Source of the DNA: a virus
Taxonomy: Duplodnaviria; Caudoviricetes
DNA length: 26,248 bases
Virus record (IMG/VR): IMGVR_UViG_3300016265_000497
Location: 1 to 26,248 of that record
Strand: one strand, 5' to 3'
Shown here piece by piece: positions 10,014-21,103 of the stretch; within the stretch, counting starts at the first letter, position 1; every line of letters begins with the position of its first letter. The notes beneath the pieces were generated by a model. It made no database searches and was not told where the DNA came from. It was given only the letters and a program-made list of their open reading frames with translations. Position numbers and translations under genes: made by a program.

Positions 10014-11324
10014 ATGTATATTACAGTAAGAACAAAATTTCTGATAGCAACTGCGTTTGCAATACTCTGGTCGATTCTGTCTTTGTATTTGGCAGAACAC
10101 TGGATTGCCGATATCACTGAGTTGAGTCATGCATTGATTGCATGGTTTGTCGTTTTTGGTATCGCAATTATTCCTGGATTCATGAATGCATTTCTTGTTG
10201 CATCGCTGTTACTTGATAAGCGTCCACGAAGGAGAGAGTTTGCATCAGAACAATATCCAGCGATCACAATTTTGATTGCGGCATACAATGAAGAAACCAA
10301 TATCAAATCTACGCTAGATTCAATCTATCGTCAACACTATCATGGCGAAATGAAAGTGATTGTCGTCAATGATGGTTCTTCAGATGGTACTATGGCTGTT
10401 CTGAGATCGATTGAATCGAAGTATCCATGGCTAACGATTATTGATCTCAAGCGTAATCAAGGCAAGTCTGCTGCACTGAATCATGCGCTTGCACTCGTTG
10501 ATACAGAACTAACAATCACAATCGATGGCGATTCATATCTGTACAAAGATGCACTGAGGCGACTTGTTGAGCGATATATGTCTGATCCAAGTCACACTGT
10601 TGCTGTTGCTGGCGCAGTTCTAGTTCGAAACAGTCGAAAGAACATAGTTACAAAGGCTCAGGAGTGGGACTACTTTCATGGAATTGCGGCAATCAAGCGA
10701 CTGCAAAGTCTTTATCAAGGAACTCTTGTTGCTCAAGGTGCATTCAGTCTCTATAGAACATCTGTGTTGCGTGAGTTGAATGGATGGGCACACTGCGTTG
10801 GTGAAGACATCGTACTCACATGGGCAATGCTTGAGCAAGGACATCGTGTTGGATTTGCAGAAGATGCTGTTCTGTTCACCAACGCGCCAGAGACTTGGCG
10901 ACAGTTCTTCAATCAAAGACTTCGCTGGAGCAGAGGTCTTATCGAAGCATTCAAGTCTCATTGGAGACTCTTGTTCAAAGCGAGAATGACAACGATGTTC
11001 ATCTGGTGGAATCTGCTATTCCCTTATATGGATATTGCATATACGTTTGCATTCATTCCTGGCATCGTGCTTGCTCTATTTGGTATCTATTGGATTGCTG
11101 GTCCAATGACGCTGATTCTTTTGCCGCTTGCATTTATTGTGAACTACATCATGTTCAGAGTTCAAGCAAAAATGTTTATCGAACAAGGACTCAGAGTTCG
11201 TCGTAACATCACTGGATTCATCTTCTATGCATTTCTATACAGTATGATATTACAACCAGCCTGTGTGTTTGGTTACATCAAAGAGTTTTTCATGGGATCA
11301 GTTAAGAATTGGGGTACAAAATGA
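10014..11324 (+). CDS. processive GT2 membrane glycosyltransferase (PgaC/IcaA/NodC-like glycan synthase)
   Basis: N-terminal TM helices, AYNEE, NDGSSD, GK..ALN, DGD, GED, QRLRW (D,D,D,QxxRW) and C-terminal TM helices. Confidence 0.92.
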   Translation: MYITVRTKFLIATAFAILWSILSLYLAEHWIADITELSHALIAWFVVFGIAIIPGFMNAFLVASLLLDKRPRRREFASEQYPAITILIAAYNEETNIKSTLDSIYRQHYHGEMKVIVVNDGSSDGTMAVLRSIESKYPWLTIIDLKRNQGKSAALNHALALVDTELTITIDGDSYLYKDALRRLVERYMSDPSHTVAVAGAVLVRNSRKNIVTKAQEWDYFHGIAAIKRLQSLYQGTLVAQGAFSLYRTSVLRELNGWAHCVGEDIVLTWAMLEQGHRVGFAEDAVLFTNAPETWRQFFNQRLRWSRGLIEAFKSHWRLLFKARMTTMFIWWNLLFPYMDIAYTFAFIPGIVLALFGIYWIAGPMTLILLPLAFIVNYIMFRVQAKMFIEQGLRVRRNITGFIFYAFLYSMILQPACVFGYIKEFFMGSVKNWGTK

Positions 11325-12139
11325 AGAAAGTCATTTTAGCAACAGCTTGTTGCTCAATTAACGTTGCATTTGCAGATATCAATACTCAGGTGTTTCAGTC
11401 ACATGATACCGAGAACATGCAAGTCACGCAACAGATAGTTTCTGTTGATTCTGTTCGAGTTGCAGCAACAGATTATGCTGGACCATCCAGTAGACACTCT
11501 GCATCGTCTATTGCATATAACTCAAAAGATGGCTATGTTGGTCTTGGTAGTACAGCATCAAAGACATATCTTGTTGCAGACATAGCAAAGACGATCAAGA
11601 TTGACTCTGATACTGATCTGAGCATTGGGCTTGCTGCTGACCTTGTTGATTCAGAGACATCACTGAACAAAGGCATTACCTATACTGGTGGCTATGCAAC
11701 AGTTGATGCTAGAACTTCATTCGGTGGGTTTGTTCTGAGTCCAAGAACGTTCCAATACTCAAACGGAAATACTCAGATTGGTCTGAACACAAAGCTGTAT
11801 GCAGATGTCGTTGATGGAATGAATGTCTACATCAACACAAGACACTTTGAGAATAGCAAGCCCATGAATGGTGACTTCTATTCACCAAAGTCCTTTGGAA
11901 GAGTCAATCTTGGTATTGGATTCAGGCAACGAGTGTTTGATACGATGATTGCATCTGGATTCGTTGAGACTGGCGTGATCGATGCAGACTCAGTGACTTC
12001 TCGTGCATCTGCATGGCGACTCGCAGTTGAGCGTCCAAGATCAGACTCGGTGACATTTGGACTTGCTGTTGGTAGCGACACGACACGCCAGGCATATCGA
12101 TATGACTATGTAAGACTCTATGTGAACTTCAAGTTGTGA
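11321..12139 (+). CDS. putative outer-membrane beta-barrel protein
   Basis: Signal peptide MKK...AFA, alternating amphipathic strands, C-terminal YVRLYVNFKL resembling a beta-signal. ATGA overlap with the GT2 stop. Confidence 0.7.
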   Translation: MKKVILATACCSINVAFADINTQVFQSHDTENMQVTQQIVSVDSVRVAATDYAGPSSRHSASSIAYNSKDGYVGLGSTASKTYLVADIAKTIKIDSDTDLSIGLAADLVDSETSLNKGITYTGGYATVDARTSFGGFVLSPRTFQYSNGNTQIGLNTKLYADVVDGMNVYINTRHFENSKPMNGDFYSPKSFGRVNLGIGFRQRVFDTMIASGFVETGVIDADSVTSRASAWRLAVERPRSDSVTFGLAVGSDTTRQAYRYDYVRLYVNFKL

Positions 12140-12145
12140 GATGTA

Positions 12146-12596
12146 CCCGTACTCACGGCACATTGATTGAGTCTTGTGGACTTCAGGTATTGAAGATGGA
12201 ATAGATATGATCTTGAAAAGAAATGAAGCAGTAGCGAGTCGTCGCCAGACGACAAGCTTGTCACGAACGAAGTGAGTGACTAAAGAGACTTAATTGAAGT
12301 AATATTGTTTCAATGAGTCTCTATGTTGTCTTAGTGTATATTTTTTAACTTAATACAGCTTATAAATTTGTTCAATTAGACTCTATGTTATAGGATTGTT
12401 TAGGATTGAAACTTAACTGATATTCAATGAGTTTCTGTAGACGCTACGCTGGCGCTTCGCGTCAAGTCGCAGTCTTCGACTGCTCCTTATGCGCTATAAT
12501 GAAAGGTGACGCTTTGTATCTATAGACTTATACGTTATAAGCGTCACCTCAAACTGATGAAATTTCAAGATGTATGCTATACTACGTGAGTACGGG
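12146..12596. other. structured non-coding element bounded by a perfect 12-bp inverted repeat (candidate origin or large ncRNA)
   Basis: CCCGTACTCACG (12146-12157) and CGTGAGTACGGG (12585-12596). Nested ATCTTGAAA (12210-12218) and TTTCAAGAT (12563-12571). At least five internal hairpins. No ORF in the track. Confidence 0.65.
12284..12438. repeat. iteron-like imperfect repeats in an AT-rich tract
   Basis: TTCAATGAGTCTCTATGTT (12309), TTCAATTAGACTCTATGTT (12371), TTCAATGAGTTTCTGT (12423) and an inverted copy at 12284-12298. Confidence 0.7.
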
Positions 12597-12626
12597 ATAG
12601 TACAAAACGACAAAATGAGGTTTTTA

Positions 12627-12737
12627 CTAAATAAATTTGTATAGTCCTCAACATGATTGATTTTCCATAGTCTTCCCTGGCCAAGGGTTTATAGTTTGTC
12701 GATCATGCTGAGGACGTACCTTCTGTTGGCCCAGAAG
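12627..12737 (+). promoter_or_regulatory. CTAAATA late-promoter-like motif and structured 5' leader with loop-loop complementarity
   Basis: CTAAATA 12627-12633. 17-nt stem 12644-12660/12699-12715. GGCCAA (12679-12684) is complementary to the TTGGCC loop (12726-12731) of hairpin CTTCTG/CAGAAG. Confidence 0.55.
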
Positions 12738-12770
12738 TAAAATTCAAACAAAAGACTTAGGAAACAAACA

Positions 12771-14270
12771 ATGTATAGCAAAAATCCACTTGGTGCAGCC
12801 GTATCTTCTTTAAAAGCTGGTGGCGGCAAGACGCTCAATATTATTCTTCAAGCTTTCTTAAAACAGAAAGCAAATACTCCACCGATTATCTCTGTTCCTA
12901 GCATTTTTCTACAGGAAGAGTATCGAGTTCGTCTTATTTCTGCTGGACTGAATGATAGTGAGATCGTGATTATCAATTCGACTACAGTAGATCAACATGA
13001 ATCTGTATCTCGAAAATTCTTTCAAACTCTTCCACTGAATAAAACAATAATTATTACGCACGAAGCATTGAAGCTGATTGATCATCGCTCTTCTAATAAA
13101 GCATTATATGCAAATCGAGATTTGTTAATCGATGAAGCATTTGATCCAATCAGTATGACTGAGCTAACAGTAACAACTAATTCCGATGGTGTTCCTGGTA
13201 TCAGACATATTGATTGGAAACGTTGGTTGAATCCAACTGGTGTTATTGTTGATGGATTTGTCGAGCTTATGCCATGCAAAGGTCATTGTTATAACGACAT
13301 CTATAACATGACAAAAATCAAAACTATTGAAAATAGAAACTACAAACTCTATATCAGCGAATCTAACTGGAACTCTCTACTTGCAAACAATGCTCAGAAA
13401 ATAAATATTTTTGGATTATATGATATAAACATACTTGCACAATTCAAAAGTATTTCTATATCATCTGCTGCGTTTCATACGACAACGCTTGGGATTTTTT
13501 TGAAAAATTCTGGCGTGAATCTAAATCTTACACATGCGTATGAAAAGCATGATGAGAAGATTATCTTTCATCTTGCCAAAATTAATAACGAACTGTACTC
13601 ACATTCAAAGGGAGCAATAGCAGAACATCACGAACGAGTTGAAACTTTTAGAAATTATGTCGCTAAAACTCTACAAGATCGTGAATCTTTGCTGTTAAGA
13701 AATATTTCAGATACAACGAGTCTTCCATACAGTCGGTATCATCAGATAAGCAACAACTGTCATGGTATAAACTCATTTCGGCACATTGACGCTATATCAA
13801 TTGAATGTGCATATAATGCGAACAACAATCAGATTTCATTCATGCAAAGTATTATGAAATTTACTCGTGAACAGTCTGTTTTGGTGATTGCTGCGAACAC
13901 GTTTTATCAGTGTATTCTGAGAACTTGTATTCGTGACAAATCAAACACAAAACCAGTTGATGTTTTCTTGTTGGATTCAAAAGTGTTTCCACATCTTGTA
14001 AAACACTACTTCAATAATTATGAAATCAAAGATATCAATATAGGAAATTTTGATACTCGACATAGAGAAGAATCTCTTTCATCCGACCACATCAAAATCA
14101 AACAATTCATCGAAAATACTGCTTCGGGTGAATACAAAGCATCAACACTATATGATAGTTTTGTGACAAAAACTGGTTCTACGACGAGCATCAGGAAGTT
14201 TGCCCTGTCATTGAGCGATCTTGGTTTAGCAAAACGACACACAAAATATGGCAAAATATATCGAGTGTGA
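12771..14270 (+). CDS. SF2 helicase-like P-loop protein with C-terminal winged-helix-like domain (candidate origin-binding protein)
   Basis: AGGGKT Walker A, VPS motif Ia, ITH, LLIDE Walker B, YQCILRTCIRD motif VI-like. Basic C-terminus LYDSF...SIRKFALSLSDLG...YRV. AT-rich. Confidence 0.75.
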   Translation: MYSKNPLGAAVSSLKAGGGKTLNIILQAFLKQKANTPPIISVPSIFLQEEYRVRLISAGLNDSEIVIINSTTVDQHESVSRKFFQTLPLNKTIIITHEALKLIDHRSSNKALYANRDLLIDEAFDPISMTELTVTTNSDGVPGIRHIDWKRWLNPTGVIVDGFVELMPCKGHCYNDIYNMTKIKTIENRNYKLYISESNWNSLLANNAQKINIFGLYDINILAQFKSISISSAAFHTTTLGIFLKNSGVNLNLTHAYEKHDEKIIFHLAKINNELYSHSKGAIAEHHERVETFRNYVAKTLQDRESLLLRNISDTTSLPYSRYHQISNNCHGINSFRHIDAISIECAYNANNNQISFMQSIMKFTREQSVLVIAANTFYQCILRTCIRDKSNTKPVDVFLLDSKVFPHLVKHYFNNYEIKDINIGNFDTRHREESLSSDHIKIKQFIENTASGEYKASTLYDSFVTKTGSTTSIRKFALSLSDLGLAKRHTKYGKIYRV

Positions 14271-14350: not shown

Positions 14351-14602
14351 ATGAACAAATCTAAACTTCAAACAGTCAGCGTATTAGCAAATGAAACTTA
14401 TAATTCAAGCGTAATTTTTCATGTACCAACACTAAACGGTAAACTCTGGCAACGACAGACTCCAAACAATGCAGAAATTGATATGTTTCGATCACATGTT
14501 AATCGGACTCTTGGTGATCGAAAATATCTTGTTATCACTTCGGATGTTTCTTCTCTTGGTAAAAACGCTAAAACTATACAGATTGCCGAGGCTACTGGAT
14601 GA
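14351..14602 (+). CDS. hypothetical protein
   Basis: 83 aa ORF, AT-rich. Confidence 0.6.
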   Translation: MNKSKLQTVSVLANETYNSSVIFHVPTLNGKLWQRQTPNNAEIDMFRSHVNRTLGDRKYLVITSDVSSLGKNAKTIQIAEATG

Positions 14603-14620
14603 ATTGGTAGACTAACAGCA

Positions 14621-14890
14621 ATGTCATTCGATGACACTATTTTTGATATGCCAGAAGTTGGAATGCAAGATTTCATGCAAAGTGTTCTTGGAATGTCAAG
14701 TAATGAAATTAAAACAGTTAGTATATTGGATCAATACTATCAGAATATCAGAAAAACATCAATTGTAAACAAAAAAAGTAAAACGTCAGTTGATGTGTTC
14801 ATGTTTGACGGTTTAACTGCATTAGCAATCATCAGTATGAATGTTTTCAATGCAAAAATGAAGACTTTTGAACTTGGCGAAGTGTCGTAA
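14621..14890 (+). CDS. hypothetical protein
   Basis: 89 aa ORF, AT-rich. Confidence 0.65.
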   Translation: MSFDDTIFDMPEVGMQDFMQSVLGMSSNEIKTVSILDQYYQNIRKTSIVNKKSKTSVDVFMFDGLTALAIISMNVFNAKMKTFELGEVS

Positions 14891-19755: not shown

Positions 19756-19763
19756 TCGAAATG

Positions 19764-19800
19764 AAGAGTCTGGAGTCTAAATAACTTCAGACTCTTTTTT
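19764..19800 (+). terminator. intrinsic terminator whose loop is CTAAATA
   Basis: 13-bp stem 19764-19776/19784-19796 (one G-U), loop 19777-19783, T run. Confidence 0.8.
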
Positions 19801-19827: not shown

Positions 19828-20763
19828 ATGTCGATCAAGAACATTCCACAGTCACTGCTTGATGCAGTCAATAAAGTGCTGACTGAAGAACATCCACCGA
19901 TTAATGATTCTACGAAGCAACACAACATTTCGATGTCTCAAAGCACTGGTGCAGACAAGTCGAAATGGGTTAACTTTTCTTTGAATGATGCCTCTGGTAA
20001 GCAGATTGGATCACTGATGCTGTCATCGCATGATGATGGTGCGAACTACTCTGTCCGTGAAGCAAATGTTGATCTTGCACATAGAGGTCTTGGTCACGGA
20101 AAGGCTATGTATCTTGCTGCAATAAATTTTGCAAAAGAAAACAATGCAAATCTCACAAGCGATAAAAGCATCTCAGTCGATGCGGATAACGTTTGGCATT
20201 CTCTTAGAAAAATGGGTGCGAGTGTCAACAGACATCCAAATGTGAAATTCGTTGCTGATAAGCTACGCACACACAGAAACATTGATGTTGGTGGAAACTC
20301 TGTATCCATACCATCAGACGAGCCTGTATGGAAATACACGAACAAGCAATCAGCGATCACTGAGTCCGAAGAAGACTATCGTGGAGAACACACTGCTCCA
20401 GGGCCGGATTACGGGGCACCAGCGCATGATCTGACTCGTGATATCTACCCATCAGACTTCTACTCAAGTCGCGGTGCTCGGCTCTATGGCGACGGCAGAG
20501 ATGATGACTACAAAGTACACTCGCAACTGAGAACTCTGCACAATCGTCCAGAAGCAGAAGTGAACATCTATCGAGCAGTGCCTAATGACTCAACGATCAA
20601 GGAAATCAATCCAGGCGACTGGGTAACGACCAACCTGCAATATGCTCATGATCATGGTGAACGATTCGACTCTCACAAGATTCTCTCAAAGCGAGTGAAA
20701 GCAAAAGAAATCTTTACAGATGGCAACTCATTCCATGAGTTCGGCTATCATCCACAAGACTAA
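19828..20763 (+). CDS. two-domain protein: GNAT-like plus ART-fold-like (polyvalent-protein type)
   Basis: V...HRGLGHGKAMY acetyl-CoA motif A, LTSD..IS..A..VW. Then IYRAVP...INPGDWVT...YA..HG...HEFGY. Confidence 0.75.
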   Translation: MSIKNIPQSLLDAVNKVLTEEHPPINDSTKQHNISMSQSTGADKSKWVNFSLNDASGKQIGSLMLSSHDDGANYSVREANVDLAHRGLGHGKAMYLAAINFAKENNANLTSDKSISVDADNVWHSLRKMGASVNRHPNVKFVADKLRTHRNIDVGGNSVSIPSDEPVWKYTNKQSAITESEEDYRGEHTAPGPDYGAPAHDLTRDIYPSDFYSSRGARLYGDGRDDDYKVHSQLRTLHNRPEAEVNIYRAVPNDSTIKEINPGDWVTTNLQYAHDHGERFDSHKILSKRVKAKEIFTDGNSFHEFGYHPQD

Positions 20764-20793
20764 AACAAAAAGGGACTCAATCAAGAGTCCCTT
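20762..20793. terminator. bidirectional terminator between convergent genes
   Basis: AAGGGACTC/GAGTCCCTT stem with an A run on the left (U tract on the minus strand). Confidence 0.8.
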
Positions 20794-20798
20794 CTACT

Positions 20799-21008
20799 TT
20801 ATGGCAGTTCTGGTACTGGCATCCAGTGCGTCACTTCACCGCCACCAAAGAATCCAGATCGACTGAAAAATACGTTGTCTTCTGGATCATACTGTCCAAC
20901 CCAGACTTGGGCACTTGCATCTGGACTAAAGATACCAGGTGCATGATAGAGAATCCATTGATTCTCCTTTGGCAGTCTATCGTCAACGCTAATCCATTTC
21001 ATAGTCAT
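20799..21008 (-). CDS. DUF551-family protein
   Basis: WISVDDRLP...VTHWMPVPELP. Confidence 0.9.
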   Translation of the reverse strand: MTMKWISVDDRLPKENQWILYHAPGIFSPDASAQVWVGQYDPEDNVFFSRSGFFGGGEVTHWMPVPELP

Positions 21009-21103
21009 TCCTTTCTTTGAATATTGCTATCCTAGCATAAAAGTCTTGCAGACAAGTAGTGTCTTACTTAAATAGATATATCACAATTACCATAATGATC
21101 ATC

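Follow-up and report, generated by a model that had tools for sequence, protein, structure and literature searches.

Does the DNA between two genes of a T4-like phage fragment encode an RNA that controls the gene following it, and if so, in which direction? We addressed this question in a stretch of 26,248 nucleotides (the window), a T4-like phage fragment that carries DNA ligase, exonuclease, PhoH, HNH endonuclease, and phrog_1745 genes and that is matched best, among public runs, by freshwater metagenomes. The DNA at issue is a 631-nt gap between the end of a 276-aa ORF at 12139 and the start of a 499-aa ORF, encoding a helicase-like protein, at 12771. An initial annotation had placed a new cis-regulatory RNA with kissing loops in this gap, and a new, conserved, cis-positioned pseudoknot leader is supported by loop covariation, by a late-promoter motif that places the predicted start at the first base of its stem, and by a helix over the RBS that has been kept. 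The leader, of ~125 bases, is likely a real RNA structure absent from catalogues and likely a switch that lowers helicase output, since its pairings have been kept through matched mutations in related phages. Such an uncatalogued, covariation-backed double pseudoknot would gate translation inside a late transcript, the opposite of the arrangement familiar from T4. The leader is also small enough for direct probing and reporters, natural compensatory variants are in hand, and it offers a handle on an uncharacterized, widespread phage helicase family and a possible origin.

Architecture of the Leader

Recounting the base pairs of the long stem that had been annotated at 12644–12660/12699–12715 gave 15 Watson–Crick pairs, one G-U, and one A-C mismatch, in line with the earlier description, and the stem could be lengthened by four pairs, out to 12639/12719 (P1, 4 + 17 pairs in all; Table 1). 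The inner hairpin, P3, also exists, but not quite in the form described: its U-A closing pair must open for a 6-bp kiss to form, leaving the stem CCC/GGG and the loop UGGCCAA. The following hairpin, P4, does have the loop complementary to the inner loop that had been claimed for it, with 6/6 Watson–Crick pairs in its stem (12720–12737) and 6/6 in the kiss (GGCCAA/UUGGCC). The SD, TAGGA, was located at 12758 as reported, 20 nt 3′ of P4 and 8 nt 5′ of the ATG at 12771.

The leader fold has a z-score of −3.35, and equal stability was reached in 0 of 200 shuffles. Under a strict hairpin definition the leader kissing pair is unique on the + strand of the window, and such a pair occurred in neither 30 shuffled windows nor 5000 shuffled 102-mers; a looser definition found one in 4% of leader shuffles. 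A search of the whole window against Rfam 15 gave no match reaching the gathering score, and for 12140–12800 there was nothing beyond noise at an E-value of about 4.

Table 1. Positions of the predicted features of the leader locus in the window.
Feature	Position	Strand	Comment
Origin-like block upstream of promoter	12146–12596		Nested inverted repeats, AT-rich core; putative function
CTAAATA, T4-type late promoter motif (predicted −12 to −6)	12627–12633	+	Aeh1 consensus
P1 5′ arm	12639–12660	+	Pairs with 12699–12719; G12639 is predicted +1
Anti-RBS strand, 5′ side of large internal loop	12662–12674	+	11/13 Watson–Crick with 12752–12764
P3 inner hairpin, loop 1	12675–12687	+	Kissing bases 12679–12684
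Linker from P3 to top of P1	12688–12698	+	Weak pairing only; 10–11 nt in window and closer relative
P1 3′ arm	12699–12719	+	Partner of P1 5′ arm
P4 hairpin, loop 2 (12726–12731), conserved UAAAA	12720–12742	+	Kept in closer relative and L097
RBS strand with SD TAGGA (12758–12762)	12752–12764	+	Partner of 12662–12674
499-aa SF2 helicase-like gene	12771–14270	+	phrog_2467, E 8e−32
Decayed second copy of helicase C-terminal half, two small ORFs	14351–14890	+	tblastn

The structure had been thought to end about 20 nt before the SD. This proved not to be so, as the SD region itself can pair with the strand 5′ of P3 (the anti-RBS helix), an interaction that the first reading overlooked. The helix crosses P1, and for that reason goes unseen by nested folding programs, which leave the SD of the window leader open. 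The anti-RBS duplex was calculated at −10.5 kcal/mol, versus +0.7 kcal/mol for its in-loop competitor on the opposite side of the loop, and it stops 6 nt before the ATG. Its bases are separate from those of P1, P3, P4, and the kiss, in both the window and the closer relative described below. The duplex is not significant against shuffles when the window is taken alone (p 0.09–0.13), so that support for it comes from relatives.

Late Promoter and Predicted Start

The predicted late promoter of phage Aeh1, as given in a comparative account of such phages (PMC1524935), is CTAAATA from −12. The same spacing from the CTAAATA of the window makes G12639, with which P1 opens, the +1, and we predict that a late transcript starts there. 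Each of the three + strand copies of CTAAATA in the window precedes a start codon and falls outside long ORFs, while the looser HTAAATA is not enriched over shuffles (10 matches versus 9.1 expected). In a related T4-like contig, G001, the motif stands 17–40 nt before the tail sheath, tail tube, head-closure, and baseplate genes. The helicase leader of that contig is 239 nt long (−74 kcal/mol); short leaders that do not fold follow the remaining late promoters, both in G001 and in the window. The motif is retained in the closer relative (at the loose end of run X10) and in the outgroup L097.

We also considered kissing loops as a general trait of these late promoters and rejected the idea, as only 3 of 75 sites had them against 1.6 expected, in a strict test that also missed the leaders of L097 and L069.

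Two other intergenic sites in the window were noted. Before the gene at 19828, a terminator-like hairpin of 14 bp (19763–19797) has CTAAATA as its loop. A hairpin-rich region at 20763–21060, which has the strongest local fold z-scores in the window, precedes a low-GC HNH endonuclease gene at 21059, where our scan found no comparable leader; given a TTAAATA at 21068, the true start of that gene is probably downstream of 21059.

Retention of the Fold in Two Relatives

Close homologues of the leader number only two. The closer relative, found in metagenome runs X7 and X12 from two studies, is ~99% identical to the window over 12098–12493 and then diverges. The arrangement is a mosaic: runs X5, X7, and X12 carry 12098–12493 at ~99%, and X7 and X12 join it to a diverged leader and helicase allele. 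Runs X9 and X11 yielded no contig here; none of 13 runs is listed as RNA, and X12, possibly RNA, does not count here as a sign of expression. We infer that the gene of the closer relative matches P0002 (64% identical), as both begin Met-His; P0002–P0007 span 45–64% identity. In two of the four runs compared, 12719–12742 is identical (24/24) and 12676–12742 aligns in one piece with nine substitutions and four gaps; differences within ~30 nt of a piece's end are unlisted. The listed changes rebuild P1, in that its 3′ arm becomes fully complementary to a 7-nt segment, itself changed, in the 5′ loose end. Loop 1 is presumably intact, because the alignment begins at P3 and the seven unlisted changes are nearly all explained by P1 and the linker.

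In this relative the RBS helix differs as well. Directly 5′ of P3 stand 14 letters, TTTCAAAATATTTT, with perfect complementarity to AAAATATTTTGAAA, which stops 7 nt short of the ATG (6 nt for the window helix). The result is a perfect 14-bp helix, in part palindromic, of other sequence but in the same place as that of the window. Two further candidates were dropped on comparison with this relative. An early-transcript switch, in which 12196–12216 would pair with P1 and the anti-RBS strand, was rejected since the relative keeps 12196–12216 yet its partner has changed. Four copies of ATAGT, considered as protein sites, are not kept in the read stretches of the relative.

L097 is the best witness to the kiss. 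It encodes P0008, the best match outside the seven close proteins (E 1e−97, 33% identical), a protein with a degenerate Walker A and a 300-aa C-terminal extension. In its leader, CTAAATA and a starting G are followed by a 25-bp stem, inside which sits a hairpin with the loop GUCUAAC; P4 and UAAAA come next. The 25-bp stem has another sequence but the same place as P1 of the window, and the P3 stem is reversed (GGG/CCC) and longer. P4 reads CUUCUG-CGUUAGACC-CGGAAG, with five Watson–Crick pairs and one G-U, a pattern that occurred once in the five genomes searched. The kiss, GUCUAAC/GUUAGAC, has 7/7 Watson–Crick pairs, and two of its pairs are changed on both sides relative to the window (GUCUAA/UUAGAC versus GGCCAA/UUGGCC), which is the covariation of the two loops that the initial annotation had put forward as a check. 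Overall, these comparisons show that the four predicted helices and the kiss have been retained via compensating changes.

L097 also bears on the nature of the molecule. That the leader acts as a single-stranded DNA structure or a self-cleaving ribozyme would fit the DNA-type GAA hairpins that adjoin it and the equal folding of the window leader, taken alone, on both strands, and ssDNA and RNA motifs are hard to distinguish (PMC5737381). The four helices of L097, however, hold nine G-U and no A-C pairs, and its RNA fold is calculated at −73.3 kcal/mol on the + strand versus −55.7 kcal/mol on the − strand, which together point to a + strand RNA. The fold also starts at the predicted +1 of the promoter, and no ribozyme family was among the Rfam matches. 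We regard the chance of a DNA structure or ribozyme as close to negligible.

Leaders in the Wider Helicase Family

The helicase family has 647 representatives at E-values up to 0.001. We compared 20 distinct loci with upstream DNA, after merging duplicates and dropping L091 and L096 (no upstream DNA or full match); where several TAAATA sites existed (L002, L073, L075), one was picked by hand. TAAATA lies 110–250 nt before the start in 13 of the 20, within 25 nt in two, and is absent in five; one of the 13, L076, looks like chance (fold z 0.0). In five of 11 other leaders the RBS window pairs with its own leader at p < 0.05 (Fisher p 6e−5), whereas each of two control windows from coding regions did so in 0 of 11. 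Loop–loop matches of 6–7 nt, unrelated in sequence, occur in four of 11 distant leaders against ~0.4 expected, although one of the four is a loop against an SD hairpin. Both kissing hairpins of L069 and L088 sit on a junction that the RBS helix closes. The Straboviridae phages RB49, Aeh1, and S13 have a helicase gene that overlaps the preceding gene, with no leader.

A fold that mainly stabilizes the mRNA through a paired 5′ end, with little effect on initiation, would account for the pairing of the predicted +1 G in the window and for the TGTA or TGCA that nine of the 11 other leaders have 3–5 nt after TAAATA, where it usually opens a stem. It would, however, leave the conserved RBS helix and the kiss unexplained, and we consider it very unlikely as the main role.

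Ligand sensing had also been suggested for the leader. The layout recalls purine-type aptamers, in which a regulatory helix closes the junction that carries the kissing hairpins. Against a riboswitch, Rfam gave no match for the window, for the upstream DNA of L097, or for that of 13 family loci, and the three close sequences (window, closer relative, and L097), a small sample, share only UAAAA among their junction bases. Because the junction nucleotides are not conserved beyond P4 and UAAAA, and because the more distant family leaders share architecture rather than sequence, the suggestion is unsupported and a ligand-sensing riboswitch appears highly improbable.

Searches for additional relatives returned little. 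The exact P4 hairpin had three matches in IMG/VR, all chance and with no helicase nearby, and none of the 62 matches to a pattern of promoter, loop 1, and loop 2 had the fold or a family gene. No close protein relatives were found in viral contigs or genome contigs, a metagenome scan for them recovered only a 99.9% identical copy (L003), and blastn in cultured phages gave short chance matches only. In the open literature that we searched, we found no description of the leader RNA or of the function of the helicase protein. Five motifs looked for in six supplementary files of a 2023 survey of viral structured RNAs (PMC10690425) had no match there, and a jumbo-phage review (PMC7824862) yielded no passage on the helicase family.

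The Helicase-Like Gene and an Origin-Like Block

The helicase-like protein conserves SF2 motifs (Walker A, DEA, and QxxxR), with G17, G19, K20, D121, E122, A123, F124, Q380, R384, and R388 invariant in seven close relatives, and it has a weak C-terminal match of winged-helix type. Pfam DEAD matches 17 of 29 family members but not the window protein. No solved homologue was found for it; its fold neighbors in the Atlas are DEAD, ResIII, and YonV_C proteins (TM 0.72–0.74). Downstream lies the decayed copy of its C-terminal half, detected by tblastn with residues 256–425 at 26% identity (E 4e−10, in the near-identical locus L003). The gene has a GC content of 35%, and gene plus decayed duplicate 34–35%, against 43–44% for the flanking genes.

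The DNA upstream of the promoter is itself unusual. The block holds inverted repeats at 12146–12157/12585–12596 (12/12) and 12210–12218/12563–12571 (9/9), three iteron-like repeats at 12309, 12371, and 12423 (spaced 62 and 52 nt), and GAA-loop hairpins. In the closer relative, the outer 18-nt pairing of the block is kept across a diverged segment that is 47 nt longer, and L097 has an equivalent nested layout of other sequence upstream of its leader (L097:1489–2210). The block is probably an origin or a second large structured element, and if the former, the helicase may be its initiator. GC skew gave no clean origin signal in the 26 kb, and GAA-loop hairpins near other family genes were sporadic, with no clear enrichment. 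Just upstream of the block (10014–12139) lie host-like genes, one for a GT2 glycosyltransferase and, after it, one for a predicted exported protein.

The proximity of block and leader raises the question of whether the RNA serves replication directly, as a primer, an R-loop, or a helicase-loading scaffold, with the RBS pairing secondary. The block stands just upstream of the leader in both the window and L097, family relatives of ~800 aa have a primase-like domain after the helicase, and helicase leaders account for two of the three kissing hits among the 75 late-promoter sites. The predicted transcription, however, is directed away from the AT-rich block, no terminator follows the structure in the window, and in the closer relative a block that is 99% identical is followed by a leader that has diverged. 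A direct role in replication thus seems quite unlikely to us.

A Model of the Leader

We propose that the leader is a cis-acting translational lock, closed by default, in which the kiss stabilizes an RBS-occluded fold and limits a probable initiator helicase, a reading that we regard as probable, if only modestly so. The late transcript of the helicase-like gene would begin at G12639. P1 would close first, displaying the anti-RBS strand unpaired; P4 would form next, and its loop 2 would kiss loop 1. The SD, on emerging, would be captured by the waiting anti-RBS strand, giving a double pseudoknot with the RBS shut. By our estimate from helix lengths and linkers (11 nt; 14 nt, or 9 nt in the closer relative), all pairings are possible at once, and they could form two side-by-side stacks, P1 on P4 (~27 bp) and the anti-RBS helix on P3 and the kiss (~22 bp). 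The conserved UAAAA would pack along the kiss, and in such an arrangement the kiss would stabilize the closed state. Translation would then be low by default, its level set by how readily the weak, AU-rich anti-RBS helix breathes while the scaffold stays stable, and a probable replication-initiator helicase would be kept at low dose. Pairing of +1 would in addition protect the 5′ end. Binding or unwinding by the helicase would be the most likely modulator of the leader, and autoregulation is possible.

The opposite direction of control has to be weighed, namely that the leader is an activating switch in which kissing frees or presents the RBS, with RBS pairing confined to an alternative, unkissed state. 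This is a live rival, because the outgroup lacks the same anti-RBS helix (p 0.80 for a match in L097). A strong SD in L097 precedes a 32-codon ORF (L097:2437–2535) that is in another frame and overlaps the start of P0008, and this SD can instead pair with the 5′ strand of P4 (6 bp, −5.2 kcal/mol), a pairing incompatible with both P4 and the kiss. Loop 2 starts with a pyrimidine-U-N-purine motif in both the window and L097, in keeping with the U-turn rule. There is precedent in the pseudoknot switch of ColIb-P9 repZ, a replication initiator gene whose leader pseudoknot activates translation and is targeted by antisense RNA. A second precedent is timP, in which a pseudoknot is needed for translation (PMC11228461). 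In the window, however, the bases of the anti-RBS helix are distinct from those of P1, P3, P4, and the kiss, as they are in the closer relative, and the L069 and L088 junctions, closed by the RBS helix, carry the kissing hairpins at the same time. A scan of the window DNA also found, as a candidate antisense promoter close to the leader, neither an opposing MTAAATA nor a sigma-70-like site, and it found no leader ORF with an SD. The topology argues against a pseudoknot needed for translation in the window, and for one in L097; an activating kiss in the window leader is, in our judgment, somewhat unlikely.

Small Phages and Chromosomal Islands with the Helicase Gene

Two 35-kb phage records, G004 and G005 (L105–L108), are rated 95–100% complete and encode portal, terminase, and tail proteins of their own, plus, in G004, an integrase. 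In both, [AC]TAAATA stands 13–70 nt before many structural genes and before the helicase, and no sigma factor or RNA polymerase match was found among the 46 ORFs scanned. It is possible that these phages depend on T4-like late transcription. Low-GC chromosomal islands of ~10 kb with one or two integrases were observed in Limnohabitans (L109:1–9800), Hydrogenophaga (L111–L112), and L093–L095. These carry a clamp-loader-like ATPase and the helicase behind a TAAATA promoter with a conserved 138-nt folded leader, and we consider them satellite-like elements.

A bolder and, we think, unlikely proposal is that the locus is a mobile origin–initiator cassette suited to T4-like late transcription, made up of a nested-repeat origin, a late promoter, and a double-pseudoknot leader that is bound or unwound by its own SF2 helicase. 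If so, the 35-kb phages and the islands would be satellites that replicate only when a T4-like helper supplies the late sigma factor.

Comparison with Known Systems

As a member of phrog_2467, the window gene belongs with RB49 ORF044c, for which a weak DEAD/DEAH match has been noted (PMC1524935), and with its kin. Unlike in the window, the phrog_2467 gene of RB49, Aeh1, and S13 is embedded in an operon before gene 55.

Like timP and ColIb-P9 repZ, the window combines a loop-based pseudoknot with RBS sequestration in a long leader; it differs from them in that no antisense promoter or leader peptide was found within its 26 kb and in that the kiss seemingly fits the closed state. In the timP system, the pseudoknot activates translation and the leader is an antisense RNA target (PMC11228461).

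Where a 2010 review of T4 takes up such control, it reports no riboswitch or comparable switch as characterized in T4-type phages, and it describes gene 32 as perhaps the sole viral autoregulatory pseudoknot (PMC3014915). The gene 32 operator has two stacked helices and then an unstructured A+U stretch over the RBS that is coated by gp32 (PMC3014915). The window is alike in that a replication gene in a T4-type phage has a leader pseudoknot, here a predicted one, but with a loop–loop kiss and a helix over the RBS. In place of an unstructured A+U stretch, the RBS of the window has a conserved partner, though nested folding leaves it open.

The leaders of the T-even genes e, soc, 49, and I-TevI also have hairpins that sequester the RBS (PMC3014915). 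There, the T-even late promoter lies in the 5′ arm of the hairpin, and late transcripts, which are therefore without it, are translated (PMC3014915). The window is similar in that a predicted cis helix covers the SD, again for a gene behind a T4-type late promoter. Its promoter, however, is upstream of all the helices, and the structure that would close the RBS is a double pseudoknot.
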